Shown here: positions 3,254 to 51,074 of the stretch, in pieces
How positions within the stretch are numbered: the stretch's first letter is position 1
Layout of the letters: the number at the start of each line of letters is the position of its first letter
Assembly (NCBI RefSeq): GCF_004104415.1
Contig: NZ_CP034669.1
Source: Corallococcus coralloides
Lineage (GTDB): Bacteria > Myxococcota > Myxococcia > Myxococcales > Myxococcaceae
DNA: 64,000 nucleotides
Strand: one strand, 5' to 3'
The notes under the pieces: model-generated
Told to the model about the DNA's origin: nothing
The model's database searches: none
Seen by the model: only the letters and a program-made list of their open reading frames with translations
Made by a program: the position numbers and the translations under genes

Positions 3254-6200
3254 ATGCGTCGGCTCCCCCTGCTGCTTGTCCTTGGTTTGTCTGTCCTGAC
3301 CGCCTGCTCCACCGTGGAGCCCGAGGCGCCGGATGAGCACGAGATGTCTGGCGAAACCTCGCGGGCGCAGTCCTCGCCGGTGCAACAGGATTACCACTTC
3401 GAGTTGAGGTGGGACGGCGCGGCGAAGTGCCCCACGTGCCAGTACCCGTCCTACGCCTGCTCGGACAACACCGGAAACTGGAACGGTGGGGTCCGGAGCT
3501 TCACGGATCCCGTCAAGGCCGGTTGGATTGTGATTTCCGCCGACGTGGAGCTCTTCGGCCGTGGCTACGACGGCGGACTCACGACCGTCCTGCTGAACAG
3601 CCAGGAACTGGGGGCCTTCAGCATGCCCCCGAATCCCTACCGGGTGTGCGGTGGCTGCTATACGCCGGAAGTCGGCTTCAAGGCGCCCGACTCCACGGGG
3701 ATGCCAGGCTATCGCTACGGCAGCACCAATACCTTCACGCTGCGTTCGGAGCGGACCAACTGCTTCGCCGCCGCCCGGATCCGCCTGAGGACAGGGCGGC
3801 CCCTGCTCAAGGTCAATCCATCGAGTCTGTCCTTCGGCTCGATCGCGGTGGGCACGTCCGCCTCCCAGAAGGTGAGGCTGAGCAACGAGGGCGCCGTCCC
3901 GCTGATCATCGACGCCATGTCGCTTCCCCTCCCCTTCAAGCTGACACCGGTGTCCCTGCCCTTCACACTCAAGGAAGGCGCGTTCCTGGACGTGACCGTC
4001 ACGTACGCGCCCACGGCCGACCGCGTGGACTCGGGAATCCTGAGCCTGCTGAGCAGCGACCCCGACAAGGGCTCCCTGCCGATCAAGCTCGAGGGGACGG
4101 GCGGCGCCCCGAAGCTCGAGCTCGCGCCGGCCGCGCTCGACTTCGGCGCCGTGCGCGTGGGCACGAGCAGCAGCCTGCTCCTCCAGGTGAAGAACGTGGG
4201 GAGCCTGCCGCTCACGATTCCCGCCGTGCTGACGCAGGCTCCCTTCACCGTGAGCGGCCTGCCTCCGGGGGGCAGCGTGGTGCAGCCAGGGACGGTCCTC
4301 CCGCTCACGGTGACCTTCACGGCGACGGCGGGAGTGTCGTCCCTGCCGATGTACATCCAGGCCCAGGGGTCCGCCACGCCGCTCGCGGAGGTCTCTCTGC
4401 ATGGCACGGGCATCGAACCCGCCATCGTCGTGGCGGCGACCTCGCTGGACTTCGGTGTGCACACCGCGGGGGTCGACCCTGTTCGCAAGACGCTGGCGGT
4501 CAGCAACAGCGGCCTGGACGACCTCATCCTCACCGCCTTCGACGTCGAGGCGCCGTTCACGGTGGAGTCCGGCCTTCCGCTGACGATCCAGGCCCGGGAG
4601 CAGGCGAGCCTGACGGTGACCTACGCCCCGGGGGCGGGCCGCGCCGCGAAGGACCTCATCCTGCGGAGCAATGATCCGCGTACCCCCGCCGTGAAGGTGG
4701 CGCTCACCGGCACGGGCGTGGAGGTCCCCGCGCTCAAGGTCACCGCGTCCGATGGCGGCACGGCGCTGGAGTTCGGCTCGCGCGAGGTCAGCTCCGTGAG
4801 CGCGCCCCAGACGTTGACGCTCAAGAACGAGGGGGCCGGGACGCTCGTGGTGGAGCCCATCCAGCCGCCCACGGGCTTCGCCGTGACCCCCGCGGGGCGG
4901 TTCAGCCTGGCCCCCGGCGCCACGACCCAGGTCCAGGTGACCTTCGAGCCTCCGCATATCGCCCAGTTCGCGCAGGAGCTGATGCTGAGCGCGGACGGCC
5001 CGGGTGGCTCCTCCCAGACCGTGCTGCTCAGCGGACAAGGCGTCGAAGGAAAGCTGACCGCTACTCCCTCGGCGCTGTCCTTCGCGCGGACGGAAGTGGG
5101 GAACAGCAGCAAGGCGGTGCAGGTGACGATCGTCAATTCGGGGACGGACACGCTCACCCTCAGCACCATCGCGGTGGCGGGGCCGTTCTCGGTGGTGCTT
5201 CCGGAGCTGCCGAAGGAGCTCACGCCGCGCGACGCCTTCACCATGGAGGTCACCTTCATCCCGGTCGAGGACGGCGCCGCGACCGGCGTGCTCCGTGTGT
5301 TCTCGAACGCGCCGTCGTCTCCCACGGTGGTGAAGCTGGACGGAGAGGGGCTCCAGGCCGTCGGCCGGATGGCGAGCGACGTGATGGAGTTCGGCGGCCA
5401 GCGGTTGGGGGGCCTGAGCCCGCCCCGGGAACTCACGCTGTTCAACATGGGGAGCGAGTCGCTGAACGTGACGGCGGTGAACGTGAGCGGCCCGTTCCAG
5501 GTTTCAGGGCTCAACGTGGGCACCAGCGTGCCGCCGCTCGGAAACCGCACGTTCCAGGTCAGCTACAAGCCCACCGAGGCGACCGCGGAGAACGGCGTGC
5601 TGGAGGTCCAGAGCAACGCGCCGCGCGCCGCCCAGGTGACGCTGCGGGGCACGGGGACCACTGCCGCGATGGAAACCTCCGTGACGGCGCTGACGTTCGG
5701 TTCCCAGTTCCTCGGGGAGGCCTCGCAGCGCGTCGTGGAGTTGCGCAACACCGGCACGAGCCCTGTCACCATCACGGGACTGGATCCGGTGGACGGATTC
5801 TCCGTGTCCGGGCTGCCGCTGCCCCATGTCGTGGGGCCCGGCAGCAGCCATCCCTTCTACGTCGTCTTCGAGCCGCCGCGGCCGGGCGATTACGCAGGGT
5901 CGCTCGCGGTGCGGCACGATGCGTCCTCCACGCCGCTGATGATCGCGGTGCAGGGGGCCGGCGTGGCGCAGGGGCTGACGGTGACGCCCGGAGCCATCGT
6001 GTTCGGCAACCAGCGGGTGGACGCCACCAGCCAGCCCCTTTCGTTGGAGCTCGTCAACACGGGCAACGTGCCCGTCACCGTGGAGGTGAAGTCCTCCGAT
6101 GCCGCGTTCCGCGTGGACACGAGCACGGTGAGCGGTGCCATCGCGGCCGGTGGCCGAGCCTCCATCCCGGTGACGTTCCATCCGACGCGCACGGGCACGG

Positions 6201-6391
6201 TGCGCGGCGAGGTCCGCGTGGTGCCGAGCGGAGGCGGACTGGGCCCCACGGTCGTTCCCGTGGAGGGGATTGGCGAGGCCGTCACCGTGGAGGGCAGCGG
6301 CTGCGCGGTGGGCGGGAGCGGCGGGGTCTGGGTGCTGGCGGCGTGGATGCTGGCCAGGCGGAGGGCCCGGCGCGGTCAGCAGGCCCGCTAG
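3254..6391 (+). CDS. giant cell-surface lipoprotein with about 9 tandem choice-of-anchor-D/HYDIN-like beta-sandwich repeats and MYXO-CTERM sorting tail
   Basis: Lipoprotein signal MRRLPLLLVLGLSVLTACS; about 100-aa repeats (LxFGxVxVGTSxxxxLxLxNxG...); C-terminus GSGCAVGGSGGVWVLAAWMLARRRARR is a MYXO-CTERM motif. Confidence 0.9.
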   Translation: MRRLPLLLVLGLSVLTACSTVEPEAPDEHEMSGETSRAQSSPVQQDYHFELRWDGAAKCPTCQYPSYACSDNTGNWNGGVRSFTDPVKAGWIVISADVELFGRGYDGGLTTVLLNSQELGAFSMPPNPYRVCGGCYTPEVGFKAPDSTGMPGYRYGSTNTFTLRSERTNCFAAARIRLRTGRPLLKVNPSSLSFGSIAVGTSASQKVRLSNEGAVPLIIDAMSLPLPFKLTPVSLPFTLKEGAFLDVTVTYAPTADRVDSGILSLLSSDPDKGSLPIKLEGTGGAPKLELAPAALDFGAVRVGTSSSLLLQVKNVGSLPLTIPAVLTQAPFTVSGLPPGGSVVQPGTVLPLTVTFTATAGVSSLPMYIQAQGSATPLAEVSLHGTGIEPAIVVAATSLDFGVHTAGVDPVRKTLAVSNSGLDDLILTAFDVEAPFTVESGLPLTIQAREQASLTVTYAPGAGRAAKDLILRSNDPRTPAVKVALTGTGVEVPALKVTASDGGTALEFGSREVSSVSAPQTLTLKNEGAGTLVVEPIQPPTGFAVTPAGRFSLAPGATTQVQVTFEPPHIAQFAQELMLSADGPGGSSQTVLLSGQGVEGKLTATPSALSFARTEVGNSSKAVQVTIVNSGTDTLTLSTIAVAGPFSVVLPELPKELTPRDAFTMEVTFIPVEDGAATGVLRVFSNAPSSPTVVKLDGEGLQAVGRMASDVMEFGGQRLGGLSPPRELTLFNMGSESLNVTAVNVSGPFQVSGLNVGTSVPPLGNRTFQVSYKPTEATAENGVLEVQSNAPRAAQVTLRGTGTTAAMETSVTALTFGSQFLGEASQRVVELRNTGTSPVTITGLDPVDGFSVSGLPLPHVVGPGSSHPFYVVFEPPRPGDYAGSLAVRHDASSTPLMIAVQGAGVAQGLTVTPGAIVFGNQRVDATSQPLSLELVNTGNVPVTVEVKSSDAAFRVDTSTVSGAIAAGGRASIPVTFHPTRTGTVRGEVRVVPSGGGLGPTVVPVEGIGEAVTVEGSGCAVGGSGGVWVLAAWMLARRRARRGQQAR

Positions 6392-6414
6392 GCCCCCGGG
6401 CCCGGTGCGGCCAG

Positions 6415-6477
6415 AACCTGTCCGACTGTCGGACAGGTTTCCGCGGGCCGCGGCTGTCCGACTGTCGGACAGGTTTT
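6415..6477. terminator. tandem pair of perfect palindromic hairpins (bidirectional intrinsic terminator) between convergent genes
   Basis: aacctgtccgac-t-gtcggacaggtt at 6415-6439 followed by ttt; second copy ctgtccgac-t-gtcggacag at 6454-6472 followed by GTTTT; spacer ccgcgggccgcgg is itself palindromic. Confidence 0.7.
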
Positions 6478-6512
6478 CGCAGGGTGCCTCCGCCGGGGAG
6501 GCCCTCCTGGAC

Positions 6513-8063
6513 TCAGGGGGGAGGAGGCGCGGGGACGGAGCGGGCCGAAGTGGGCTCGCCCAGGATCAACAGAAGCTCCGCGCGGCGGTTCTCGCCCCGC
6601 CCTGCCGGCGTTCCGTTGGAGCCCGCGGGCCGGCGCGCACCGAGACCCCGGGCTTCCAACCGGTGGGCCGGGACGCCCTTTCGCACGAGGTACTCGCGCA
6701 CGGCCTCCGCGCGAGCGAGGGACAGGCGCTGATTGGATGCGGTGGAGCCTTCCGCGTCCGTGTGCCCTTCGATGACGACGCGCTCCACTTCCGGATGCTC
6801 CAACAGCACCCGCGCCACCTGATCCAGGACGCGAGAGCGGCCCGGCAGCGTCGTCGCGCCGACCTCGAAGAAGACCTGGCCATGGAGGACGAGTCGCTCA
6901 CGGGTCAGCGTGACGAGCGAGTCACCAGTCTCCGGGCAGCCGCCGTGCTCTCGGGTTCCCCGCTCGTGGATGCAGGCGTCCAACACGTCCACGACACCAT
7001 CACCATCCGAGTCGGTCTCGGAGACCGGCTCGTCCTTGGCGGGCTCGGGAGGTGGAGGTTCGGAAGGCGTGGGTTCGGGTTCGAGCTGTGGCTCGGCAGG
7101 GGCACGCGGGAGCCCCTGGACCAGCTCGTAGACGATGTCCTCCGGGGGCGGAGGTGGCGGCTTGTCGAAGAGAAGCGCGAAGCCCGCGAGCACCCGGTAT
7201 CGGGGCGCTCCCGGCTCCGCGCCCAGGCCCGCGCCGCCCAACGCGAAGAACTCCCAGGGCCGCGCCGGTGCGTAGCGCAGGCCGCCCAGCAGCTCTCCGC
7301 TGGTGCGCTGCTGCCGCCACGAGTACGCGCCGAGCGCCGACACCTCCGCGCGCAGGGCGTACCCCACCGTCAGTCCCACCCCGGCCCGCAGCTCGTTGCC
7401 CACGCCGTTGAGGCTGTCCACGCCGGAGTCCGTCGAGACGGCGCGACGCAGGAGCACGCCCACTTCCAGCGCCGGAGCCACGGGCCCCCAGCGCTTGCCC
7501 ATCATGATCCGTCCCTGGCCACGGACGCCCTGATCACGCGCGAGTGCGCCCGAACCACCCACGGGCAGCCGGACATCCAGGTCGAGCGCCAGATGGAAGG
7601 CCTCGGGAGCGGAGGTCCCCAGCAGCCCCAGTCGGGCAGCGAGCCGCGGCGCCCCCAGCCCGCTGCGTGACGGCGGGGAGATGGACAGCACGGTGCTCAC
7701 GTCCGCGCCGCTCTGATGGATGACGCCAGGAAGCTGGGCCTGAAGCTCCAGCCAGGGCAGCACGCCGACGGCCAGCGACACCACGCCGGTGGTCCGGGAC
7801 AGGACGAGCGGGTATTCGTCCGGCCCATTGCGGACCGTCAGCGATCTCCGCTGGTAGTGCGCCAGGAGCGAGATGCGCAGCGCGCCGGGCGCCAGCAGCT
7901 CCCCGCTCCCCATCGTCAGGGGCCCCAGGCCCGGGTTCGGGTCCAGGCGCTCCAGGGAGAACGTGGGCAGGGGCGTGGCGTCCTGGGCACGCGCGGGGGT
8001 TGCGAGCAGCAGCAGCCCCAGCGCGGCCCCGCCCACTGCGCATCGGTGCAAGGCCGGACCCAT
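6513..8063 (-). CDS. OmpA-family outer-membrane protein with thrombospondin-type-3-like Asp-rich repeat and Pro-rich linker
   Basis: Signal peptide MGPALHRCAVGGAALGLLLLATPARAQ (start chosen at 8063); DSDGDGVVDVLDAC calcium-binding motif; C-terminal OmpA_C region (TLPGRSRVLDQVARVLLEHPEVERVVIEGHTDAEGSTASNQRLSLARAEAVREYL...NRRAELL). Confidence 0.85.
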   Translation of the reverse strand: MGPALHRCAVGGAALGLLLLATPARAQDATPLPTFSLERLDPNPGLGPLTMGSGELLAPGALRISLLAHYQRRSLTVRNGPDEYPLVLSRTTGVVSLAVGVLPWLELQAQLPGVIHQSGADVSTVLSISPPSRSGLGAPRLAARLGLLGTSAPEAFHLALDLDVRLPVGGSGALARDQGVRGQGRIMMGKRWGPVAPALEVGVLLRRAVSTDSGVDSLNGVGNELRAGVGLTVGYALRAEVSALGAYSWRQQRTSGELLGGLRYAPARPWEFFALGGAGLGAEPGAPRYRVLAGFALLFDKPPPPPPEDIVYELVQGLPRAPAEPQLEPEPTPSEPPPPEPAKDEPVSETDSDGDGVVDVLDACIHERGTREHGGCPETGDSLVTLTRERLVLHGQVFFEVGATTLPGRSRVLDQVARVLLEHPEVERVVIEGHTDAEGSTASNQRLSLARAEAVREYLVRKGVPAHRLEARGLGARRPAGSNGTPAGRGENRRAELLLILGEPTSARSVPAPPPP

Positions 8064-8278
8064 GCGCGCATCATCCGTCAGGTCCCGCCCGGGCTGAAGG
8101 GGAATGGCGGCTGGACTCGCACCTGCGGCTCCCCTCCCCCTCCCGGAAAGACGCTCATGCAAAGGCAGTCATGCGCGGAAACCTTCACGCCTGTGATGAT
8201 TGATGCGGCGGGGTGCCCCGAAGACACCGAGCCAGATATCCTATCAAGGCAGCGCGGACCCAGAACCCAGGAGGGCAC

Positions 8279-8713
8279 ATGCGAGCAGCGATCATCGCAG
8301 GGCTGATGGCTGTCGGGGTGTTGGCGGGATGTGGACGAGAGGACTTGAACCAAGACGAGCAAGGCATCCTGGCGACGCATGAGGCCGCCCTGCCATCCGC
8401 ATCGGAATGTGAAGACACGTGCGAACAACTGCGTGTCGCATGCCTCGACACCGCGGAGAACAGCGCCCAGCGCATGGTGTGTCAGCGCGACTGGCTGGCA
8501 TGCAACGAGGGCTGTGCTTCTTCCAAGGCCGCGATGGCTCCGCCGGACAGCTGTGACCCGTTCGAGGACGACGGCTGGTGTCCTGTGTCCAGCAACAAGA
8601 TCACCTGCTCCAACGGAGTCCAGATGGATGCCCACTGGACTCCGGACGGCTGGTGCATCAACGCGGACGTCTGCAAGAACTACGGCGGCCCCTGGGTCTG
8701 CCCGGAGTGGTGA
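8279..8713 (+). CDS. small Cys-rich lipoprotein, paralog A of a local family
   Basis: AGGAGG 8 nt upstream of ATG; lipobox VLAGC; C-terminal module APPDSCDPxxDDGWC...CSNG...DGWC...CKNYGGPWVC shared with 8719 and 11884 copies. Confidence 0.7.
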   Translation: MRAAIIAGLMAVGVLAGCGREDLNQDEQGILATHEAALPSASECEDTCEQLRVACLDTAENSAQRMVCQRDWLACNEGCASSKAAMAPPDSCDPFEDDGWCPVSSNKITCSNGVQMDAHWTPDGWCINADVCKNYGGPWVCPEW

Positions 8714-8718
8714 GCGCC

Positions 8719-9012
8719 ATGAAACGACAGAAGACGCTTGCACTGGCCTTCAGCGTGGGGATGATGCTCGCCGGCTGTGGACCTGGGGCCGCGCCCGCCA
8801 CGGAGACCGAAACGACCGAGGACCGGGTGCACGCCATGGCACCGCCGGACAGCTGTGATCCGGACATCGATGTCGGCTGGTGCCGGATCACCACGGACCA
8901 GGTCCGCTGCGCGAATGGCTTCTACATGTATGCCTATTTGACGCTGGATGGCTGGTGCAGCCGCTACGACGCCTGCAAGAACCAGGGCGGGCCGTACGTC
9001 TGCGGTCTGTAG
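8719..9012 (+). CDS. small Cys-rich lipoprotein, paralog B
   Basis: MKRQKTLALAFSVGMMLAGCG lipoprotein signal; same 8-Cys C-terminal module (CDPDIDVGWC...CANG...DGWC...CKNQGGPYVC). Confidence 0.7.
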   Translation: MKRQKTLALAFSVGMMLAGCGPGAAPATETETTEDRVHAMAPPDSCDPDIDVGWCRITTDQVRCANGFYMYAYLTLDGWCSRYDACKNQGGPYVCGL

Positions 9013-9059
9013 TCCTGCGTATCCTCGCCTCCCTGCCCTATCATCGGCAGTGAGGTCCA

Positions 9060-11900
9060 ACTGCCGGACAACTCCAGCCTGCACTCGGGCGGCTTGGGCA
9101 TAGAGGTCGCTATGGGAGCAGTCCACATGCGGGAATGCAAAATCAAGGGTGTCACTGGGCTTGGCGCTTGGTACATTGCTACTCACAGGCTGCGGACCTG
9201 AAGAATGGCAGGCGGCCTTGCCTGCAGCACAAGCCTAGAAATTGGCTCACAACGCGAGCACAACAACCCGACCCAACAACAGCCAAAGAACACAACCCAA
9301 AGAGCCAATCCCACCACCAAGACCACCCAACAAAAATCGCCCACCGCTCGAAAACATCACACAAACACACACTCAAAAACCATTCATCAATGACCCTGAC
9401 ACCACACGATGAAGAATCGAATTTCGAAGCCGAAGTAATAAGAATAGCAAGGCAACTTTGGAAGACCGCTGAGTTCGGCGGAAGCCAAATTGAGGACGGC
9501 AGAGAAAGGGATGGTGTTTTCGTCGGAGAAGACACTGTCAATCTCGTCGAATGCACCGTCTCACGCAGAAAAGACAAGGCAGAGAAGGATGTCGGCAAGC
9601 TCATCGACCTGTCGGAAAAATTCCGAAAAACCCACCCCGACAAAGGAATTAAGGCTTGGTTCATCACCCGAGACGAGCCAACCGCAGATCAACGCAGCGT
9701 CGCACAAGCCACACAAAGCCGTGTTATAGCTGTCAGCTTCGACCAGTTTCGGTCTCGGCTAATTGACGCACGCTCCTATATTGATGCTCGAGGCCACTAC
9801 GCATTCGGGAGCATTCGCGATCCAGAGACGGGAAGCACGACCGATCGCACAGAGTATATTCCTCTTGATCTTTTAGCTCGCGAAAGCGGGGCACCACGCA
9901 CAATCAAGGATATTGCCAAAAAAGTCACAACAGGAAGTCGCTTTGTATTGCTGGGAGACTACGGAGCAGGCAAGAGCACCAGCCTAAGAGAAATTTTCTT
10001 TAGCGTAGTCAGCCTATTCAATAACAACAAGTGCCGAGCATTTCCCGTCCACTTGAATTTGCGCGACCACCAAGGCCAAACAAATCCTGCCGAGGCACTT
10101 CTTCGACACGGCACCAACATCGGCATGCCGAACCCCCTGCATCTTGTGCGAGCATGGCGAGCCGGATATGTCGTCGTTCTGCTAGACGGATTCGATGAGA
10201 TTGTAACAGCGGGCTGGGTGGGGCGCAGCAAAAAACTCAAAGAGTGGCGCCACCGCTCAGTCCAACTAATTCGAGAATTCGTCAAATCCACCCCGCCAGA
10301 CATTGGGCTTGTGGTTTCCGGCAGAGAGCATTTTTTTGACAGCACAAAAGAACTCACTGGAGCCCTGAGCACTGGCGAGGGATTTGAGATTTTGACTCTC
10401 AATGAATTCTCCGACGACCAGATCAAGGCATTTCTTGCCAAGAAGGGCTGGTCCGGCCCAGTTCCCGAGTGGCTCCCATCACGACCGCTCCTATTGGGGT
10501 ACCTGGCAGCAAAGGGGCTTTTACAAAAGACTCTTGAAGTAGATGCTGGCTCAAGCCCAGCCGCTGGATGGCATGCATTGCTGGATAGGATTTGTACACG
10601 CGAAGCCGAGATCGAAGCAGGCCTTGACGGGGAGACAATTCGGCGAATAATTGAGCAAATCGCAACAATCGCCAGAAGAGCTACTGATGGCCTTGGGCCC
10701 TTGGGCAGCCAGGACATAGTATCCGCTTTTAGCGAAGTCTGCGGCTATCCTCCCGATGAAATGGCAACGGTGCTTCTGCAACGCCTGCCTGGCCTAGGAG
10801 TTCACTCAGCGGGCGATGAATCCCGCGCGTTTATTGATCGTGACTTTGCGGCTGCGGCCAGGGCGGGCGATATTTTCCGTTATATTGAGGACCCATACTC
10901 CCACTCACTACGAGACCCTCAATCCTGGCAATGTCCGTTTGACGAATTGTCGACACAGGTCACCGCGCTTCGCATATCGGGAGCTCAAATTGACCCCAAG
11001 AAGATCAGCATTGCTACACAGAGAGCTGCCGAGAGCGCGGGGTGGGACATCGCAGCCCTTGATCTGATTCGTACAGGATACGAAGTTGGCGCACCGCGCC
11101 TATCTGGAAAGATGTACATAACAGAAGCATTCGTTTCATCGTTCGAGCTACATGAAGAGGAGACCGTCTGGACTGGAATTGAATTTCAAGATTGCATCTT
11201 CGGCCGATTGACCGTCCCGCCGGAAACCGATCTTGAAGCCTGCCCGCGCTTCGTACGGTGCCATTTCGGAATAGTAGATGGCCTGAATGAGAAAGATGGA
11301 CTTCCCGAAGGTATATTCGAAAACTGTACTTGCGACGCATTCGAGCAAAAAGTCCACACAACGGTAGGACTGCTCAACCTCTCGATCCCACTCGGGTCCA
11401 GAGTATTGCTTACTATCCTCAAGAAGCTTTACATGCAGCGAGGGACGGGCCGAAAGGAGAGCGCACTGTATCGAGGCTTAGATCATCGTGCCCGGCGACT
11501 TGTCCCTGACATTCTTTCGCTACTAGTGAGCGAAGGATTAGTAGTCAAAGCACGCGGAGGTGAACAAGTTGTCTGGCTTCCCGAGAGGTCCCATAGTGGG
11601 CACATTAGGCGGATTTTAGCCTCACCTGAAACCACGACTGACCCTTTGGTTTTGAAGGCAGGTCAGATTGTATGACTAAAAACCATTAACTACCCACATT
11701 TCCATCAGAACGGCCGGCATTTACAGGTGCACCCTGAGAAATCAGGTCGCCATCTGCAGTTTGCACCTGCGCCCCTCACGCCCTGTCAAGCGATATTTGA
11801 TGGGGCTTTATGCTCGACGCATAACCACGCATCGTGCGTACCCCGAGTCCATTCAGAAACCAATGCTTTGACTCCGGTTTCTGCATCGGCCCTGACGGTC
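9060..11900. other. low-GC (about 50%) horizontally acquired island inserted in the Cys-rich lipoprotein paralog array
   Basis: Abrupt base-composition drop versus about 70% flanks; bounded by about 88%-identical copies of the lipoprotein 3' end plus terminator (8850-9065 vs 11890-12130); carries a single large ORF. Confidence 0.7.
9390..11675 (+). CDS. NACHT-like STAND P-loop NTPase with N-terminal Mrr/NERD-like nuclease-fold domain; candidate antiphage defence protein (bNACHT/Avs-like)
   Basis: 761 aa; Walker A VLLGDYGAGKST; Walker B VVVLLDGFDE (NACHT-diagnostic DGFDE); sensor-1-like GLVVSGRE; N-terminal FEAEVIRIARQLW...RERDGVF...VNLVECTVSRRKDK resembles Mrr-cat/NERD; long C-terminal region without recognisable repeats. 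Confidence 0.75.
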   Translation: MTLTPHDEESNFEAEVIRIARQLWKTAEFGGSQIEDGRERDGVFVGEDTVNLVECTVSRRKDKAEKDVGKLIDLSEKFRKTHPDKGIKAWFITRDEPTADQRSVAQATQSRVIAVSFDQFRSRLIDARSYIDARGHYAFGSIRDPETGSTTDRTEYIPLDLLARESGAPRTIKDIAKKVTTGSRFVLLGDYGAGKSTSLREIFFSVVSLFNNNKCRAFPVHLNLRDHQGQTNPAEALLRHGTNIGMPNPLHLVRAWRAGYVVVLLDGFDEIVTAGWVGRSKKLKEWRHRSVQLIREFVKSTPPDIGLVVSGREHFFDSTKELTGALSTGEGFEILTLNEFSDDQIKAFLAKKGWSGPVPEWLPSRPLLLGYLAAKGLLQKTLEVDAGSSPAAGWHALLDRICTREAEIEAGLDGETIRRIIEQIATIARRATDGLGPLGSQDIVSAFSEVCGYPPDEMATVLLQRLPGLGVHSAGDESRAFIDRDFAAAARAGDIFRYIEDPYSHSLRDPQSWQCPFDELSTQVTALRISGAQIDPKKISIATQRAAESAGWDIAALDLIRTGYEVGAPRLSGKMYITEAFVSSFELHEEETVWTGIEFQDCIFGRLTVPPETDLEACPRFVRCHFGIVDGLNEKDGLPEGIFENCTCDAFEQKVHTTVGLLNLSIPLGSRVLLTILKKLYMQRGTGRKESALYRGLDHRARRLVPDILSLLVSEGLVVKARGGEQVVWLPERSHSGHIRRILASPETTTDPLVLKAGQIV

Positions 11901-12086
11901 CGCGCCGTGGAACCACCGACCAACTGTGATCCAGACATCGACGTCGGCTGGTGCCGGATCTCCACCGACCGCGTCCGCTGCGCCAACGGCTTCTACATGT
12001 ATGCCTATTCGACGCCGGACGGCTGGTGCATCCGTTACGACGCTTGTGTCAGCCAGGGCGGACCGTACGTCTGCGGTCTGCAATGA
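11884..12086 (+). pseudogene. 5'-truncated remnant of Cys-rich lipoprotein paralog C (signal peptide lost at island junction)
   Basis: About 88% nucleotide identity to 8850-9012 including stop and downstream hairpin (ccctgccctcacatgggggcaggg); no signal peptide; upstream ATG at 11727 gives a non-secretory leader. Confidence 0.6.
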
Positions 12087-12135
12087 AGTCCTCCTCCCTG
12101 CCCTCACATGGGGGCAGGGAGGTCCCACGGCCCAA

Positions 12136-12987
12136 TCACTTCCCAGCGCGCTGAGCCGCCTCCAGCGTGTTCTTCATCAGCATCGCAATCGTCATCGGGC
12201 CCACGCCACCCGGCACCGGAGTAATGAACGACGCGCGCTCGGACGCCGCAGCGAACTCCACGTCCCCCACCAGTTTGCCGTCCGCCTTGCGGTTCATGCC
12301 CACGTCAATCACCACCGCGCCGGGCTTGATCCACGCGCCCTTCACCAGCTCCGGCACGCCCACCGCCACCACCAGGATGTCCGCCTGGGCCACCTCCGAC
12401 GGCAGGTCGCTCTTGCGGTGGCACACCGTCACCGTCGCGTCCTTCTGGAGCAGCATCAGCGCCTGCGGCTTGCCCACGATGTTGCTGCGGCCCACCACCA
12501 CCGCGCGCTTGCCCGCCGGATTGCACCCCACCTCCTCCAACAGCCGCATCACCCCATAGGGCGTGCACGCCCGCGTCGCCGGCCGTCCCAGGAGCAGGTT
12601 GCCCGCGTTCATCGGGTGGAAGCCGTCCGCGTCCTTCTCCGGCTTCACCGCCGCGATGATGGCGTCCGCGTCAATGTGCTTGGGCAACGGCAGCTGCACC
12701 AGGATGCCGTGCACGGCCGGGTCCTCGTTCAGCCGGTGCACCAGCGCCAGGAGCGCGTCCTGGGTGATGGTCTCGTCCGGGTGGTGCTCCCAGGAGTTGA
12801 AGCCCACCTCCTCGGCGGCCTTCTTCTTCCCCGTCACATAAATCTTGGACGCCGGGTCCTCACCCACGCGCACCACGGCGAGCCCCGGGGTGATGCCGCG
12901 CTCCGCCTTCAGGCGCGTCACCTCCTCCTTGATCTCCGCCCGCACGCGCGCCGCCACTGCCTTGCCGTCAATCAACTGAGCCGTCAT
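12136..12987 (-). CDS. folD: bifunctional methylenetetrahydrofolate dehydrogenase/cyclohydrolase
   Basis: 283 aa from [13 protein letters not shown]...; FolD motifs ([49 protein letters not shown]). Confidence 0.93.
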
Positions 12988-13038
12988 GAGAGCCACCTTA
13001 TGCAAGACTGGCCCGGCACAAGGGAGCGAAGCGAAGGC

Positions 13039-38950: not shown

Positions 38951-40174
38951 CTACAGCGTGGAGAGGACACGCTGGAGGATGCCCAGCGCTTCGTCCAGCT
39001 CGGTCCGGGTGATGATGAGGGGCGGGGCGAACCGGAGCGTCACCTCTCCGGCGGAGTTCACCAGCAGGCCGGCGTCGCGCAGCTTCGCGATGACGGGGGC
39101 GGCCTCGCGGTCCAGCTCCACGCCCAACAGCAGCCCCTGCCCGCGCACGGCCTGGATGCGGCCCTCCGGCAGCGAGGCCTGGAGCGCTCGCGCGCCGGCG
39201 AGGAAGTGCTCCCCCTTGGCCTGCACCTCCGCCAGGAAGCCGGGCTGGCGCATCAGCCGCAGCACCACGTTGCCCGCGGCGGCGGACACCAGGTTGCCGC
39301 CGAAGGTGGAGCCGTGGGTGCCCGCGGAGAGGCTGCCCGCCAGCTCCTCGCGGCAGAGCATGGCGCCCATGGGCAGCCCGTTGCCCAGCGCCTTGGCGAT
39401 GCTGATGGCGTCCGGCCGGATGCCGTGGTGCATGAAGCCGAAGGGCTGGCCGGTGCGGCCCATGCCCGTCTGGACCTCGTCCACGAGCAGCAGCAGGCCC
39501 TGCTCGTCACAGAGGGCGCGCAGGCCCTGGAAGTAGCCCGGGGGCGCCATGCGCACGCCGCCCTCGCCCTGGATGGGCTCCACCAGGATGGCGGCGGTGG
39601 ACGGCCCCACGGCGCGGCGCACCGCCTCCAGGTCGCCGAACGGCAGGTGCCGGAAGCCCTGGGGCAGCGGCTCGAAGCCGGCGTGGTACTTCGGCTGGCC
39701 GGTGGCGGTGACGGTGGCCAGCGTGCGGCCGTGGAAGCTCTTCTCGAAGGTGAGGATCTCGAAGCGCTCGGGCTGGCCCCGGTCCTTCATCACCTTGCGG
39801 GTCAGCTTGATGAGGGCCTCGTTGGCCTCCGCGCCGGAGTTGCAGAAGAACGCGCGCGGCAGGCCCGCCCAGTCGGTGAGCTGCGCGGCCAGGTCTATCT
39901 GCGGCTGCGAGTAGAAGACGTTGGAGACGTGCCACAGCGTGTCCAACTGCGCCTTGGCCGCCGCGACCACCTCCGGGTGGCAGTGGCCCAGCGCGCACAC
40001 GGCGATGCCGCCGATGCAATCCAGGTACGCCTTGCCATCCGCGTCCCACACCCGCGTGCCCTGCCCGCGCACCAGGGCAATGGGTTGCTGCTTGTAGTTC
40101 TGCAGCAGGTGCTGCTTCGCCTTCTGGATGAGGCTCTCGTTACCAGGGGCGGATGCGGGGGACGGCGTTTGCAA
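38951..40174 (-). CDS. argD: acetylornithine aminotransferase (class III PLP aminotransferase)
   Basis: GxGxRVWD, FCNSGAEANE, LLLVDEVQTGMGRTG, THGSTFGGN motifs; start assigned to TTG at 40174 with upstream GAGAGAGG (start uncertain). Confidence 0.85.
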   Translation of the reverse strand: MQTPSPASAPGNESLIQKAKQHLLQNYKQQPIALVRGQGTRVWDADGKAYLDCIGGIAVCALGHCHPEVVAAAKAQLDTLWHVSNVFYSQPQIDLAAQLTDWAGLPRAFFCNSGAEANEALIKLTRKVMKDRGQPERFEILTFEKSFHGRTLATVTATGQPKYHAGFEPLPQGFRHLPFGDLEAVRRAVGPSTAAILVEPIQGEGGVRMAPPGYFQGLRALCDEQGLLLLVDEVQTGMGRTGQPFGFMHHGIRPDAISIAKALGNGLPMGAMLCREELAGSLSAGTHGSTFGGNLVSAAAGNVVLRLMRQPGFLAEVQAKGEHFLAGARALQASLPEGRIQAVRGQGLLLGVELDREAAPVIAKLRDAGLLVNSAGEVTLRFAPPLIITRTELDEALGILQRVLSTL

Positions 40175-40232
40175 GGTGGTGTACCTCTCTCTGCCTGATG
40201 ACGCGGTGGGACGACGCGCGGACCCTAGCGCG

Positions 40233-41630
<1,398 letters not shown>

Positions 41631-41642
41631 GGGGCGGTCCTC

Positions 41643-42170
41643 TCAGAGCTCTTCGTAGGAGACGTTGGCGTTGGTGTAGACGCAGATGTCCGCGGCGATG
41701 GCCATGGCCTGCGTGCAGATGTCACGGGCGGACAGGTTGGAGTGCGCCTGGAGGGCGCGCGCGGCGGCCAGGGCGTAGTGGCCCCCGCTGCCCACGGCGG
41801 CGATGCCATGGTCCGGTTCGATGACGTCACCCGCGCCGGACAGGATGAAGGTCTTCTCCTTGTCCGCGACGATGAGCAGCGCCTCCAGGCGGCGGAGGAA
41901 GCGGTCGGTGCGCCAGTCCTTGCCCAGCTCCACGCAGGCGCGGGCCAGGTTCTTCTGGTGCTCCTTGAGCTTGGCCTCGAAGCGCTCGAAGAGGGTGAAG
42001 GCGTCCGCGGTGCTGCCCGCGAAGCCGGCGAGCACCTGCCCCTCGCCCAGCTTGCGCACCTTGCGCGCCGTGTTCTTCATGATGGTCTTGTCGAGGCTGA
42101 CCTGGCCGTCGCCCGCGATGACGACCTTCCCGTCACGGCGGACGCAGAGGATGGTGGTTCCGTGGAACAT
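41643..42170 (-). CDS. hslV: ATP-dependent protease subunit HslV
   Basis: [25 protein letters not shown]-terminal Thr protease signature. Confidence 0.95.
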
Positions 42171-42251
42171 GACTGGGGGTTTAACAAGACCGCCCGGCCG
42201 CGACCCACAAAAACCGCGCGGCTGTCCGCTCCCTCACCCTGCGCAGGGCGC

Positions 42252-42641
42252 TCAGGTCGCGGTCGCTTTCATCCAGCGGCCCACAAGCTTAACCAGAGCC
42301 GCTTTCTTCGCCTTCACCGTCTTCGCGTCCGGCAGCGTCACCACGCCCCGGTCCGGCGCCAGCCACTCCACCAGCCCGGAGTCGTCCTCGAAGGCGAAGC
42401 CCGTCGCGTCCTTCACCTTCGCGCCCCGGTGGAGGATGACCTGGAAGATGCCCTTGGGGGCCAGGCGGAACGTCACGCGGTCATCACCCGAGTGCACGAA
42501 GCTGGGGGCCTTCCACTTGATCCGCTCGGTGATGCTGTCGTCGGAGGCGAGGATGGCCGCGCGCACGGCTTGGATCTCCGCCTTCAGCGGGTGCTCGAGA
42601 TCCGCCATGAACTGCTCGACTTCGTCAGCGTGGTTCGCCAT
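42252..42641 (-). CDS. DUF1801 (YdhG-like) domain protein
   Basis: 129 aa from MANHADEVEQFMADLEHPLK...; family-typical ...KWKAPSF... block. Confidence 0.65.
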   Translation of the reverse strand: MANHADEVEQFMADLEHPLKAEIQAVRAAILASDDSITERIKWKAPSFVHSGDDRVTFRLAPKGIFQVILHRGAKVKDATGFAFEDDSGLVEWLAPDRGVVTLPDAKTVKAKKAALVKLVGRWMKATAT

Positions 42642-42687
42642 GGCCCGTCCTCCGTTCAAGCTTGCCGCAGGATGAGTTCCGCCCCAC

Positions 42688-43176
42688 TCATTCAAAGACA
42701 TGAATCAGGACCGCCACCTGACGCTCCCGGTCCTCCACCTCGCAACTCAACATCTGCGAGACGCCCGCCGGGAGCCGGATTTCGATCCCTTTCGCGCGAG
42801 ACGCATCTTCCACACTGTCAACGATGACGTAGGGTTCGGCTTGCACCCGGAAAGACACTCGTTCGACCACGGAGTGAAGACTCGAATCAAATTCGAGCGC
42901 AGTCTGGAGTAGGAGCACCTCGTCAGGAGCATATCTCCACCTGACAACCATCGGCCCCTCCGGCCGCGAGATGACGCAAGTGCGAAGGGGTTCATCAGCC
43001 AGGACCACTACGTCGCCCCAGTCCCGCTTGATAACCGCCGACGACGTATAAATCGAGCAAGCCTCATCATAGTCCTTCGTCTTGACGCCTTCCCACATCT
43101 TCGTCTTGGAAATGGGCAGCATGACGAATGGACCGCCCAATGACTCGATCCACTCACTTTGCTCGAACTTCATCAC
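42688..43176 (-). CDS. orphan immunity-like protein (second gene of low-GC cassette downstream of RHS toxin)
   Basis: 162 aa; GC about 53%; RBS GGAGTG; no signal peptide; position within Rhs-associated immunity cassette. Confidence 0.5.
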   Translation of the reverse strand: MMKFEQSEWIESLGGPFVMLPISKTKMWEGVKTKDYDEACSIYTSSAVIKRDWGDVVVLADEPLRTCVISRPEGPMVVRWRYAPDEVLLLQTALEFDSSLHSVVERVSFRVQAEPYVIVDSVEDASRAKGIEIRLPAGVSQMLSCEVEDRERQVAVLIHVFE

Positions 43177-43307
43177 TCAGTCACTCCTGCCCAACTCCGC
43201 CGAGGAACTGCCAGTCGCCGTCGTCGCGCGACACCAATAGAGCCCGATGCGTCCTCTGGAACACATGCGAACAGACGCAAGCCGGAGACTCAGCCTCACC
43301 CATGGAT

Positions 43308-43757
43308 TCAGTCCTGTCTCAGTATTGGCTCTTCGTAATCCGCGATGTCTCCAGACGCGACCGCTTCTTCCAGGTATCGCCGAACCTCCTTGAGCGATGC
43401 ATTTTCCGGCACGCTGAGGGCAATCAGTTGATAGGCCGGCAACGACTCGCTCGTGCATCCCAGCCGCTCCAGCGCGGACCTGATGTCAGCAGAATCGACA
43501 TCCTCGGGAACGACAATTCGAATCAACGAATTGTTCGACCTCCCTACGGTGGAGCGATACCAGAGCTGGCCATCCTCTTCAGCGACCTCAATCTCGTCAC
43601 CCAAGGTTGCGTCTCGAACGAAAAAGGGCGTGTTATCCAGGACAAATCGCCCGTTCCCGGATGAACGAGCCCAAAGGCTCTCCACGCCGACTGGAGGATA
43701 CCCATCCTCATCCTGCTCGAGGCGAAAGAAGATTTTCCTGATTTCACTCACGGCCAT
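43308..43757 (-). CDS. cognate immunity protein candidate for the RHS HNH-nuclease toxin
   Basis: 149 aa acidic protein; its ATG overlaps the toxin stop (ccATGgccgTGA = PWP* / MAV); low GC. Confidence 0.6.
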   Translation of the reverse strand: MAVSEIRKIFFRLEQDEDGYPPVGVESLWARSSGNGRFVLDNTPFFVRDATLGDEIEVAEEDGQLWYRSTVGRSNNSLIRIVVPEDVDSADIRSALERLGCTSESLPAYQLIALSVPENASLKEVRRYLEEAVASGDIADYEEPILRQD

Positions 43758-46700
43758 GGATATTTATCACCCTTCTCTCGATTACAATCCCGACACAGGA
43801 CCTGGCCATTCTCTGGCGACCCTTTTCCTCCCTTGGATTCAGGAATCACATGGTCAACTTGGGTTTCATTTCCAGGAGGTCTCACGCCTGACCGGCTCTG
43901 CTGTGAGGGTACTGTTGTAGTGCCGCAGTTTTCGCAAACGGTATCGCCTCCATTTCTGGCCCGATTCTCTTCGACGACTATATCTCTGCCTTTTCGCGTA
44001 AAAGACTTGCCGCTACGGTCCTTTGCTGACGAAAAGACTGCCAGCCCCTTCGTTGCATCAGCCACTCCCTCCGCCCCGACGACCAGCGAACCTGCAACCG
44101 CGGCGGCAGAAACAGCTGCGACAGGCACCCCCACTGCGGCGCCGACTCCTGTGAAGCTGATGGCGCCCCCTATCCCTTCGCCGGCAACTCCACCCACGAA
44201 CATGCCAGCGGCCGCGTAGAGCTCCATCAGGCTGACGGCCCCCATTCCGACACCATAACCACGGTAGAAGTCCTGGGTCTGATCCTCGGGAATCGGCAGC
44301 AGATGCCCTGCCGGGAGCAATCCCGCCATGACGCCCATCAGACCGCCCCCCAGCCCCTGGGTCAGCCGCGTCAGCAACACGTTGACCTCGTCGGGATGAT
44401 AGACGGTCGTTTCGAGCAACGTGATGGACTCGGTGATCTCACCACCCTTCGAATAATCCGTCGACCGGAGGTGACTCTGCTCCAGAGAGGTATAGGACTG
44501 ATCGCCGAAGCGGATCTCCATCGTAACGGGCTCGTAGTTCGGCGAGCGCTCGAAGAGGCCGGGCCCATAGCCTGATGCCGGGCTCCTGCTTACCGGCTCG
44601 GTCCAGTTACTGAAATCGCGGCCAATCTCCGCTCCGTACCAACTGTCGTAGTAGTAGATCAGCTCCATCGACATGAAGCCGGACGGGTCCGTGTAGCGCA
44701 GCGGGTTGTTCAACACATAGCTGTACCGGTTGAACGACTGCCCCCACAAAGGCGCCTGCACCACGGGATCCGGGCTCAGGAAGCGGCCCAGCCTTGGGTC
44801 GTAGATGCGCCCCCGCATGTTCACGAGCTCGAACTCCGAGTCCTGCTCGTGGCCCGTGAAGGAGTGCCGGACCTCGTGCGAGGCCCCCTGCCACTTCAGC
44901 GACAGGTCCAGCGGATGACGCCGCGCTCCGAACGGGTCGTACTTCATCCGGCCCACGACGAGGCCGGCATCGTCAGTCACCGACTCCGTGGAGCCCAGGT
45001 GATCCGAGTGCATGTAGCGCCACTGCTTCTTGATCGCCACGCCCGAAGCAGCCTCGACCCGCCAGGTCACCTCGGCAATCCCCCGCTCCGCCGCGCTCAC
45101 ATGGAATGAATGCGTGACGGCGCCCCCCGGCTCACGGCGCTCCTCGTAGAGACCACCGACATACGTGGTCATCGTCCCATCCGAGTGCCGCTTCACGGTC
45201 CGGGCGTTGTTCGCCGAGTACCGGTACGACACGCTCTGCTGACCGTCCATGATGCGGGAGGGAAGATGGAAGCCCGTGAACTCCACCGTCCGCCCCGGCG
45301 CGGACGTCTGGTTGCCGCTGGCGTCGTAGCCATAGCTCCCCGCCTGAGACCCCGTCAGCGCATGCGGCCCTGCCGGGCCGGCGCCATAGGTGAAAGTCTC
45401 GGACTCGCTCGCCCCCAGGGTGGAGGTCCAGCCCAGCAGGTTGCCCAGATCATCATACGAATAGGATTGGATGGTGTTGCGGCAGTTCTGGACGATGTTC
45501 CATTCGGTCAGCCGGTCCAATCCGTCATAGTGGAAGTCCTCGGTCGTCCTCGCGAGCCGATCATGCCGACTTCTGACATTTCCGTTCGGCTGGTACTCGT
45601 AGGCCAGCTGCTGGAGCGGAACCGTTCCCTTCTGGCTGTCAATGAAGCGCAGCCGGCCCATCGAATCGTAGAGCCGCTGTGTCACCACGCCATTGCCCAG
45701 GCTTTCGGACGTGAGCTGCCCCAGGGCGTTACGCTCCAACACCTTCCACTTCTCACTCAGCGTCTCTAGGTCCCGGACGCTCCGGAGATAGCCTTGAGAG
45801 GTGTATTCATAACCCAGGCGCAATCGCGTCCCCGCGACAGCAGGGTACTCCAGACTCAGTGACCGTCCGTAGGCGTCGTAGCTTCGGTCAATGGCATACG
45901 CGCGCCCCTCCACCAGCCATTGCTCCTGCGTGAGCCTGCCGAGGGTGTCATAGCCATAGGCCACGGCGATGTCGTCCGTGGTCGTCGCCGGATCTCCTTC
46001 ACGTACGCTGCCCATGAGCAGTCCAGGCATACTGGGTCCCTGGGCGGGGGTGTCCCACGTGAAGCGGTCGACTCCATCCCGGCTGCTGGTCACCGTGACC
46101 GGCCGGCCCAGCACATCCCGGACATAGGTCGTCACGACCTGTGACGCATCCTCGGTCCGATCAATCTCTCCCAGGGCCGTGTAGCGGGTGGTGGTCAGGC
46201 CCGAGTCCGGTGTTCGCAGCGAGGTCCGACGCCCGAGCCGGTCGTAGCCCAGGAGCGTTTCGTTCCCCTGGGGATCCAGCACCCGCTGGAGCTGTCCAAA
46301 GGGCCCATACTGATACGTCGACTCCAACCACGGCGCGGTGAACGCCGTCCGCTCCATGCTCTTGATGACCCGGCCATTCACGTCGTTCAAGAAGCGGCGG
46401 GAATTGCCGTTCTCATCGGTGGTGGTGACCTGGAACCCCTCGCGATAGCCGCGGTACCAGGCGCTCGACACCGACCCATCCGGATGGGTCGTCTTGAGCA
46501 GGCGGTTGAGCGGATCATACTGGTAGGCCGTCACCATGCCGGTGGCGCCCCCCTGCGGATCCGGATCGGTCACCTCCACCACCCGTCCCAGGGCATCGAA
46601 CTTCCTCGTGCTGATGGCCTGGGTGCCATTGAACGAGAGCCGGCTCGATCTTACGGACCGCCCCAGGCGGTCATAGTCGACGGTGACGGTCTGCCCTCCC

Positions 46701-50140: not shown

Positions 50141-50223
50141 TGATTCGCCTGAAGAAGCAGCTTGAAAAGGAAACGCATGCGGGTCACGCATGGAAGACAT
50201 TCGCACGGTACGCTCGGGCTCGT

Positions 50224-50778
50224 TCACGACTCGGAGCCACCGGGGTTGCAGGAGATTCCCGGGCACAGGCGGTTCGTGTTGCACGAACCATCACAGCACT
50301 TGTACTGCCCCTGCGGGCACGCGGGCGGAGGCGGCGTGACACACTGGCCATTCGTGCACGTATCACCCTGGGAGCAGGTGCCACACTGAAGGGTTCCCCC
50401 GCAGCCATCCGAGGCCGGGCCACACGTCACCCCGAGGTCGGCGCAAGTCATTGGGGCACATTGGCACACATTGTCCGCGCAAGCGATTCCGGAACCGCAG
50501 GTGCCACAGTTCAACCACGCGCCACACCCATCCGGCATGGCCCCACAGTTCTTGCTCAACCCCTGGCAGGTGAATGGCGCACAGCTGCAGGCGAGGTCAC
50601 TCGTGCGGCAGACGTCGTCTTCGTCCACCCACCCGTCGCAATCATCATCCCGGCCATTGCAGACCTCCGCCGCGGGAGTACAAGCCGCGTCCGCTGTCGA
50701 AGGCACTACGAGCCCGACCGCCAACCACGCCACAGTCAGGAGCCACACCCAGCGAAGCGGCTTCGTGAGAATCGTCAT
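50224..50778 (-). CDS. secreted cysteine-rich repeat protein with MopE-like CNGxDDDCDGxVDE metal-binding motif
   Basis: Signal peptide MTILTKPLRWVWLLTVAWLAVGLVVPSTADA; about 36 Cys in 184 aa in CxxxTCxxLGxxCGxxxDGCGxxLxCGTC repeats. Confidence 0.7.
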   Translation of the reverse strand: MTILTKPLRWVWLLTVAWLAVGLVVPSTADAACTPAAEVCNGRDDDCDGWVDEDDVCRTSDLACSCAPFTCQGLSKNCGAMPDGCGAWLNCGTCGSGIACADNVCQCAPMTCADLGVTCGPASDGCGGTLQCGTCSQGDTCTNGQCVTPPPPACPQGQYKCCDGSCNTNRLCPGISCNPGGSES

Positions 50779-51074
50779 GTCAGTGCTGAATCCAAAAGGG
50801 GGCGCGAGTCCGCGATGAGTGGCACCGCCAACCGCGAGGAGTCGCGCTTCTACATCATGCCCCCAAAGAAAATCCAGACATGGGCCGGAAGTACGCGCGG
50901 ACCCATGCCTGGATGCCTGCTTTCACGATCTTCAGGAGTTGTCTGGATTCAACCCGTGCCAGCAGTTGCGTGGCCAATGCGTGGCGCATCGCCTGCGGGC
51001 ACACCTGACATGGTCGGGGAAGCCTGGGCCTCCCCCGAGCCACGCAGGATTCGCGGCGCGCCGCGAGCCCTGCC

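Follow-up and report, generated by a model that had tools for sequence, protein, structure and literature searches.

The present analysis deals with a 64,000-nt stretch of the genome of Corallococcus coralloides (contig NZ_CP034669.1 of the assembly GCF_004104415.1), hereafter the window, and more specifically with three copies of a small cysteine-rich protein module located there between positions 8279 and 12086, namely copies A, B and C. The reading favoured here, to which a probability of roughly 0.7 can be attached, is that A and B form a lineage-specific pair of lipoprotein genes bordering an integration hotspot, where C would be a displaced or duplicated fragment of the integration target lying beside an island with a NACHT gene. 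What the initial annotation of this DNA viewed as a diversifying, toxin-like family would then resolve into a lipoprotein domain found only in the Myxococcota, on the one hand, and a well-delimited insertion hotspot, on the other hand.

Copies A (8279-8713, plus strand) and B (8719-9012, plus strand) are both intact open reading frames (ORFs) separated by an intergenic gap of 5 nt, and correspond from ORF and sequence to genes for lipoproteins of 144 and 97 aa, respectively. In each protein, the N-terminus is positively charged and is followed by a hydrophobic stretch that leads to an L-A-G-C lipobox; as such, both A (MRAAIIAGLMAVGVLAGC start) and B (MKRQKTLALAFSVGMMLAGC start) present, in a pattern-level test, the features of Sec-type signals cleaved by the signal peptidase II (SPase II), where a lipobox [LVI][ASTVI][GAS]C comes after a positive n-region and then a hydrophobic one (h-region). 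In A, the signal peptide with its VLAGC lipobox covers residues 1-18 and is followed by a disordered tether, while the MLAGC lipobox of B precedes a tether of ~20 residues; all homologues in the alignment retain the lipobox Cys. An AGGAGG motif sits 7 nt upstream of the ATG of copy A, and the two genes form a co-oriented pair that is probably co-transcribed. In Myxococcus xanthus, lipoprotein sorting depends on the residue at position +2 after the lipidated Cys, where Lys leads to retention in the inner membrane. The residue at this position being Gly and not Lys in the present case, an outer-membrane location can be predicted for A and B, though with lower confidence.

Both proteins end in the same C-terminal module of 57 residues (8531-8701 in A, 8833-9003 in B), which holds six invariant Cys and not eight, as had been counted at first; in total, there are seven Cys in the B precursor, including the lipobox Cys, and 13 in A. 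The description of A as carrying an extra Cys-rich segment towards its N-terminus proved right. This A-only segment spans residues ~41-86 (nt ~8399-8536) with the symmetric pattern C-X3-C-X6-C-X12-C-X6-C-X3-C, and the AlphaFold2 model of A places there two helices (residues 41-58 and 62-86, predicted local distance difference test (pLDDT) 80-94), followed by five short strands, which suggests a two-helix hairpin with three inter-helix disulfides. Neither a sequence relative in the PDB nor a significant fold relative was found for this helical segment, which is restricted to the window and to Corallococcus sp. CA054B, where protein P0007 is a 144-aa orthologue of A with 95% identity. Full-length homologues of B in Corallococcus are 95-104 aa long.

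A six-frame scan of the window with a hidden Markov model (HMM) of the family retrieved exactly three modules (E = 7e-26, 2.7e-28 and 1.4e-28), and a repeat search likewise grouped three copies, at 8524-8707, 8826-9009 and 11897-12080, with 67%, 100% and 85% identity over 184 nt, respectively. The three-fold repeat noticed at the outset is real and far beyond chance. The view that the family of these small secreted lipoprotein paralogues is an unrecognised one was upheld as well: scans of A, B and C against Pfam, NCBIfam and PADLOC returned only sub-threshold matches to lipoprotein signals (LptM), and the module has no match among PDB sequences or PDB folds. A word-indexed search of 5.8 billion proteins turned up no more than six relatives for B and three for A, those with a name all belonging to Corallococcus, while 22 proteins reached E <= 1e-3 when 1.84 billion representatives were searched exhaustively with a HMMER profile. 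The genuine profile matches share the C-terminal module and are lipoproteins 96-119 aa in length, apart from one of 152 aa, the named ones originating from Myxococcus stipitatus, M. dinghuensis, M. qinghaiensis, Vitiosangium and Chondromyces crocatus, and the rest from metagenomes or sequencing-run assemblies. Five other hits, namely P0012-P0014, P0024 and P0025 (large Flg_new repeat proteins and one eukaryote-like repeat protein), were judged spurious, their scores being sums of weak partial stretches. In a scan of one genome per species, the module appeared in Corallococcus, in a metagenome-assembled genome of the Myxococcaceae and in Citreicoccus. In these sequence searches, the family is unannotated and confined to the Myxococcota.

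The AlphaFold2 model of the module, a confident one (mean pLDDT of 85), comprises five short strands. In six of the 20 family clusters, the first and fourth Cys are jointly replaced by aromatic residues, a paired loss which implies a Cys1-Cys4 disulfide; two clusters have gained an extra Cys pair, and 4-, 6- and 8-Cys variants exist in the family. The module is viewed as a beta-rich domain held by three disulfides, the other two being likely C2-C3 and C5-C6; as to its role, a tethered binding or inhibitor-like domain facing the periplasm or the cell surface is a guess of low confidence. Between one and three copies are present per locus, in the form of paralogue types D, A and B. In M. stipitatus (locus L014, 5620-6288), a tandem pair of the four-Cys subfamily occurs away from folD and with uninformative neighbours; tandem pairing may be a conserved feature of the family. 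At another of the related loci (L002, 7200-7945), an insertion sequence element with a DDE transposase lies between the D-type and B-type genes. The family is dispensable in some strains: at L004, both lipoprotein genes have stop codons or lost Cys, and at L008 the gene is broken. The former locus (7710-8303; 5980-7329) belongs to a strain of C. exiguus, with a gene for a PIN-domain protein upstream of the two pseudogenes.

Copy C was originally taken as the last of three adjacent genes, starting at 11884, decapitated by the island and about 88% identical to B at the nucleotide level. It is indeed a 5'-truncated copy adjoining the low-GC island, but it is a fragment located 2.87 kb downstream of B rather than a third gene; position 11884 is out of frame, the true frame being that of 11883/11886, and homology begins at 11897. 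What is left corresponds to the final 190 nt of a B-type gene (11897-12086), with the frame and all six Cys codons intact and with neither start codon nor signal peptide. Identity between B and C amounts to 84.8% over the 171-nt module and 85% over 184 nt without gaps, their proteins being 80% identical. The similarity does not stop at the stop codon and extends through a GC-rich hairpin (CCTCCCTGCCC...GGGCAGGGAGG) to 4 nt or less from the stop codon of folD. Altogether, it defines an imperfect direct repeat of about 240 nt on the plus strand, where the left member (8826-9065) consists of the last 187 nt of gene B, a degenerate hairpin (9031-9052) and some 13 nt beyond, and the right member (11897-12132) consists of copy C and the terminator hairpin. 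Over 242-243 columns, by blastn and by local alignment, the two members are 80.6-80.7% identical, which sets the figure of 88% against about 85% in the module and about 81% over the whole 242-nt repeat. The arms of the right hairpin (12093-12106 and 12109-12122) fold at -29 kcal/mol, and the left, degenerate hairpin folds at -16.9 kcal/mol (z = -3.05).

Several lines of sequence comparison bear on the origin of C. From position 11895 onward, the window, i.e., C, hairpin and folD, is collinear with a related locus where the site is empty (L013), with 90% identity over 2610 nt. In a neighbour-joining tree, C nests inside the clade of B alleles and not in a paralogue lineage of its own, the B alleles of two other loci (L001B and L012B) match it at 100% over its middle 60 nt, and in two full-length homologues (P0001 and P0002) an N-terminus like that of B occurs together with the C-like ending ...SQGGPYVCGLQ; for these three reasons, C appears to be allelic to B and not a separate paralogue. 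A terminator-like hairpin with a T-run was located by consensus scan on the plus strand at 11780-11806, 3' of the NACHT gene and 5' of copy C, in a scan where the number of sites found was not above shuffle expectation. This site is weak evidence; taken together with the missing start and signal, it speaks against the expression of C as a lipoprotein. The ORF called at 11727-12086 is best regarded as a relic, not as a gene, and is to be treated as such in annotation.

The island itself (9066-11896, 2831 nt), located at the convergent terminator shared by gene B and folD in a genome of about 70% GC, stands out in the composition profile, with a GC content of ~0.52 (~0.47-0.55) vs ~0.70 (~0.66-0.76) in the flanks. 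Its right border is set by folD (12136-13020, minus strand), a core gene for methylenetetrahydrofolate dehydrogenase/cyclohydrolase (THF_DHG_CYH_C, E = 9e-69; THF_DHG_CYH, E = 9e-44) that converges on gene B. Fourteen related loci were fetched, 13 of which are at the folD site, this gene flanking the site in 13 of the 14; the close relatives of the locus are all Corallococcus genomes. On the left, the conserved neighbour in most Corallococcus loci is an OmpA-family gene, in the window at 6513-8162 on the minus strand and divergent from copy A (Pfam OmpA, E = 2.5e-21), which is absent from the L013 locus. At the empty site of L013, gene B, a single hairpin and folD follow one another with 53 nt between the stop codons, and L006 and L008 are collinear across the site, i.e., empty. 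Besides such empty states, eight cargo states are found between gene B and folD, and integration has recurred at this hotspot between core genes.

The cargo at this site is diverse. It consists of (i) an HNH endonuclease gene in L011, the closest relative, where gene A is 95% identical, (ii) a SUKH/SMI1_KNR4 gene and an unknown in L003, (iii) a DUF6086 gene and two unknowns in L002, (iv) a trypsin-like protease gene and an RCC1 fragment in L005 (C. aberystwythensis), and (v) unknowns in L001, L004, L009 and L012. Flanking repeats centred on the hairpin vary in length from 31 nt in L004, 32 nt in L002, 52-57 nt in L001, 59-61 nt in L012 and 66-72 nt in L011, through the 240 nt of the window, to 354-364 nt in L005, where the whole B gene is included. 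The left repeat of L001, L011 and L012 extends beyond the hairpin and takes in a few nt of the folD 3' end. Three hairpins each are present in L002 and L012, and the cargo of the latter also holds a heavily decayed B copy, so that L012 looks like two cassettes parted by this decayed copy and a hairpin. Pieces of folD occur within the cargo of L005 (3515-3805, a 291-nt internal fragment at 93% identity) and L012 (11158-11256, a 99-nt 3' piece at 90%), and they indicate repeated duplication or recombination at both borders of the hotspot. The cargo regions are modular mosaics sharing modules between genomes. For the cargo spans compared (L012 8643-11951, L001 8353-9881, L003 9116-9528, L002 9335-9987, L004 8740-9493 and L009 6542-7295), L001 and L012 share 1530 nt at 99%, L003 and L012 413 nt at 88%, L002 and L012 657 nt at 70%, and L004 and L009 755 nt at 70%.

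The ratio of nonsynonymous to synonymous substitution rates (dN/dS) was calculated according to Nei-Gojobori over the 57-codon module in 29 pairwise comparisons. Values range from 0.11 to 0.40 among B orthologues, from 0.07 to 0.31 among A orthologues and from 0.42 to 0.52 between A and B paralogues, and B vs C gives 0.27 (14.2 nonsynonymous and 11.8 synonymous differences). The module is under purifying selection, and the term "diversifying" was dropped, as every pairwise dN/dS lies well below 1 (0.07-0.52). The opposite view, which had been named as the outcome that would undo the first interpretation, i.e., a widespread housekeeping lipoprotein with single-copy orthologues, agrees with the data as far as purifying selection is concerned, but not as regards the narrow distribution of the family, its one to three copies per locus and its pseudogenisation in L004 and L008. 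The low dN/dS between B and C means that most of their divergence arose while both belonged to working genes, and thus that the truncation of C is recent relative to that divergence. Substitutions private to each copy, in very small counts, are three nonsynonymous and one synonymous in C, and three and three in B. The three private nonsynonymous changes of B (S36L, P38L and I43S in module numbering) cluster at 8938-8961, i.e., residues 74-81 of copy B, in an otherwise conserved S-T-P-D-G-W-C-I motif, and are absent from other B alleles.

Under the favoured reading of C as a displaced target fragment, incoming DNA with a B-type 3' end and a hairpin would have recombined within the 3'-end/hairpin region of the resident B gene. 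Possible routes include (i) a Campbell-type single crossover of a circular intermediate, (ii) recombination at the hairpin, and (iii) an illegitimate, target-duplicating insertion; the route is here a proposal only. One of the two B-type 3' ends would then complete the expressed gene and the other would be left as a displaced fragment by folD, and the conserved flanks, along with the hairpin repeats, may have been behind the later turnover of the cargo. At its 3' end, B is closest to the B allele of L004 (94%), and the middle and 3' parts of C are closest to those of L001 and L011 (90-100%). A number of observations count against this reading: either 3' end may be the native one, both being mosaic and bootstrap support being weak; the dS of 0.42 between B and C is as deep as values between species, and an old in-situ duplication followed by cargo turnover fits equally; L003 has cargo and no detectable flanking repeat; recombinase domains (integrase, transposase) are absent from the island and from the cargo ORFs of the other loci.

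Among the alternatives, the one that survives best, though it is considered unlikely, is that of the initial annotation and starts from an ancestor with a complete third paralogue, B', and its own terminator next to folD; the island would then have inserted between the terminator of B and B', deleting the first ~110 nt of B'. Such an arrangement has a counterpart in L005, where two full-length B-type copies, each with a hairpin, are separated by 3.2 kb of cargo and the repeat starts at the ATG. Tandem paralogy is furthermore usual at the locus, with its D, A and B types, the dS of 0.42 suggests an old split between B and C, and the shorter remnants in L011, L001 and L012 could be eroded B' copies. 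However, no B' clade exists, C falling among the B alleles, and the two L005 copies are mutual closest relatives (89% bootstrap), the second of them being devoid of the lipobox Cys and several invariant residues. In addition, the empty-site genomes (L013, L006, L008 and L010) have a single B-type gene beside folD, and the inclusion of a folD 3' piece in the repeat of L001, L011 and L012 is predicted by target duplication, not by gene duplication. The present-day anatomy of the locus is identical whether C is a displaced fragment or what remains of B'.

Less probable still is that the hairpin (11-nt arms CCTCCCTGCCC / GGGCAGGGAGG, spacer of 5-8 nt) acts as a site for a host-encoded recombinase, where integrase-less cassettes would enter and leave much as Xer/dif modules or integron attC cassettes do. 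The geometry of its arms and spacer resembles the core site of tyrosine recombinases. The hairpin is also the sole element common to all flanking repeats, the three-hairpin arrays of L002 and L012 separate distinct cargo modules, these modules are shuffled between genomes, and no mobility genes are present in the cargo. On the contrary, a GC-rich perfect palindrome between convergent genes has the look of a bidirectional terminator, and its sequence is unlike the canonical dif or the dif predicted for M. xanthus (PMC2731167). A Xer/dif insertion (IMEX or pdif-module) would be flanked by matches to the dif consensus, 28 nt with ATAA...TTAT arms, but no dif-like match, canonical or of the M. xanthus type, was found in the window. 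As regards integron cassettes, neither an intI integron integrase nor an attI site was annotated or detected in the fetched loci, and the repeated hairpins are not diagnostic by themselves. Only one perfect and one degenerate hairpin exist in the 64-kb window, both of them at this locus, with no sign of genome-wide use; L003 has cargo and no right-hand hairpin, and the same pattern would result if homologous recombination took place within the 30-360 nt that are shared. Should the hairpin nevertheless be such a site, it would capture, stack and exchange cassettes, including defence genes such as that of the NACHT NTPase, the 3' end of the lipoprotein gene would be carried along with the cassettes as additional homology, and a new cassette-capture system of myxobacteria would be at hand, in which case the interest of the locus would be considerably higher.

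The original comparison with bacteriocins also called for a check of neighbouring genes. In the gene calls of the 14 related loci, no export or immunity gene is consistently beside the family: the conserved neighbours are the OmpA-family gene, an ADP-ribosylglycohydrolase gene and folD, whereas ABC exporters, peptidases and conserved small immunity genes are absent. None of the described families of bacteriocins or toxins showed homology, and the proteins are lipid-anchored and not released, so that "bacteriocin-like" was not retained. An array of secreted bacteriocin- or toxin-like peptides selected for diversity, with C as a spare silent cassette feeding B by gene conversion, would account for small, disulfide-rich, secreted, lineage-restricted proteins encoded in tandem paralogue arrays, for mosaic B alleles that differ from the closest relative far more (75-88% identity between B and its L011 counterpart) than the adjacent A does (~96%), for the open frame and six Cys kept by C, and for a SUKH immunity-family gene among the L003 cargo, but is highly improbable given that dN/dS is well below 1 throughout, that the proteins are anchored through the lipobox and not released, that exporter, immunity and toxin genes are not consistently adjacent, that raised divergence is expected, even in the absence of selection for diversity, of a gene bordering a recombination hotspot, and that, unlike pilS-type systems, where selection keeps several promoterless partial copies intact across strains, the window holds a single such fragment whose equivalents are not maintained, only ~45-60 nt being left of them in L011 and L001 and all Cys being lost from the decayed copy of L012.

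As for the island, its sole credible gene (9390-11675, plus strand) encodes a NACHT-domain STAND NTPase of 761 aa, recognised by the Pfam model NACHT (PF05729) with 33.3 bits vs a cutoff of 26.7 (E = 5e-8). In nr, an entry under the name "NACHT domain-containing protein [Corallococcus coralloides]" matches the protein at 100% identity, which falls to 60% for the next relative and to ~50% for others across several phyla. The domains N- and C-terminal to NACHT are unannotated, residues 1-170 (9390-9900) having no Pfam match, and the gene matches no defence model of PADLOC v2.0.0. By eye, the N-terminal region shows a D...E-x-K-like motif (DGVF...VNLVECTVSRRK) reminiscent of PD-(D/E)xK nucleases. 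By blastn, no island sequence is shared with the related loci or their cargo; beyond the identical nr entry, no Corallococcus relative of the NACHT island was found elsewhere, nor any shared non-coding island sequence. Just 5' of the NACHT start lies an A+C-rich low-complexity tract of ~160 nt (9230-9390; AT skew up to 0.55, GC skew of -0.24), owing to which the NACHT ORF is spuriously extended at its N-terminus by 85 codons, from 9135.

At the scale of the window, the cumulative GC skew climbs through the first 9 kb (+0.033), peaks exactly at the gene B/folD site and declines along the other 55 kb (-0.047). Of nine related loci examined, eight show the same change of sign in their flanks, L008 and L010 being named as exceptions, and this switch could be either a local effect of gene orientation or a matter of terminus proximity; in the complete genome CP079946, the locus is at 5.92 of 9.43 Mb. 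Farther along, a region of ~12 kb (40000-52000) with a GC content of 0.62-0.65 vs 0.69-0.72 elsewhere may be another acquired region.

Taken as a whole, the locus is a case of tidy and fairly ordinary genome biology. The lipoprotein domain is undescribed and a candidate for a Pfam or NCBIfam entry, yet it is one more lineage-specific family of small lipoproteins. Besides, Corallococcus offers here a natural locus for studying how integrase-less cargo, NLR-like defence genes included, is gained and swapped.

With respect to known systems, the MliC/PliC lysozyme inhibitors and the immunity lipoproteins against amidases of the type VI secretion system (T6SS) are small disulfide-stabilised lipoproteins of the periplasm or outer membrane. 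By analogy, A and B resemble them in having ~75-125 mature residues, a lipobox, disulfides, tandem arrays and a lineage-restricted, dispensable status, whereas the A/B module has no sequence or fold similarity to them or to the PDB. As regards the island, bacterial proteins related to NACHT and NLR proteins (bNACHT) defend against phage (bioRxiv 10.1101/2022.07.19.500537). Like them, the cargo of the island has a central NACHT domain and is a single-gene, horizontally mobile unit of ~760 aa in a variable region; unlike them, it has N- and C-terminal domains without annotation and matches none of the PADLOC v2.0.0 models.

Concerning the insertion itself, islands entering the 3' end of tRNA genes leave a regenerated target and a displaced fragment, which is the principle of the Islander database (PMC4383910). 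The present locus shares with such islands a foreign composition, an imperfect direct repeat derived from the 3' end of the target and empty sites in relatives, as well as the fact that one repeat completes an intact gene while the other is an orphan fragment. It differs in that the target is a protein-coding gene with its terminator and not a tRNA or tmRNA gene, that the repeat of 240 nt is only 81% identical and varies between genomes from 31 to 364 nt, and that the island contains no integrase; it is merely the end product that is resembled. More generally, hotspots are variable regions between core genes where the cargo is turned over by homologous recombination in the flanks. The conserved flanks seen here (gene B and usually, further left, the OmpA-family gene on one side, folD on the other), the differing mosaic cargo, mostly without mobility genes, and the greater divergence of the bordering gene all agree with this description. 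What sets the gene B/folD site apart is that its cargo is bracketed by a duplicated hairpin and part of the bordering gene, whereas replacement through the flanks needs neither.

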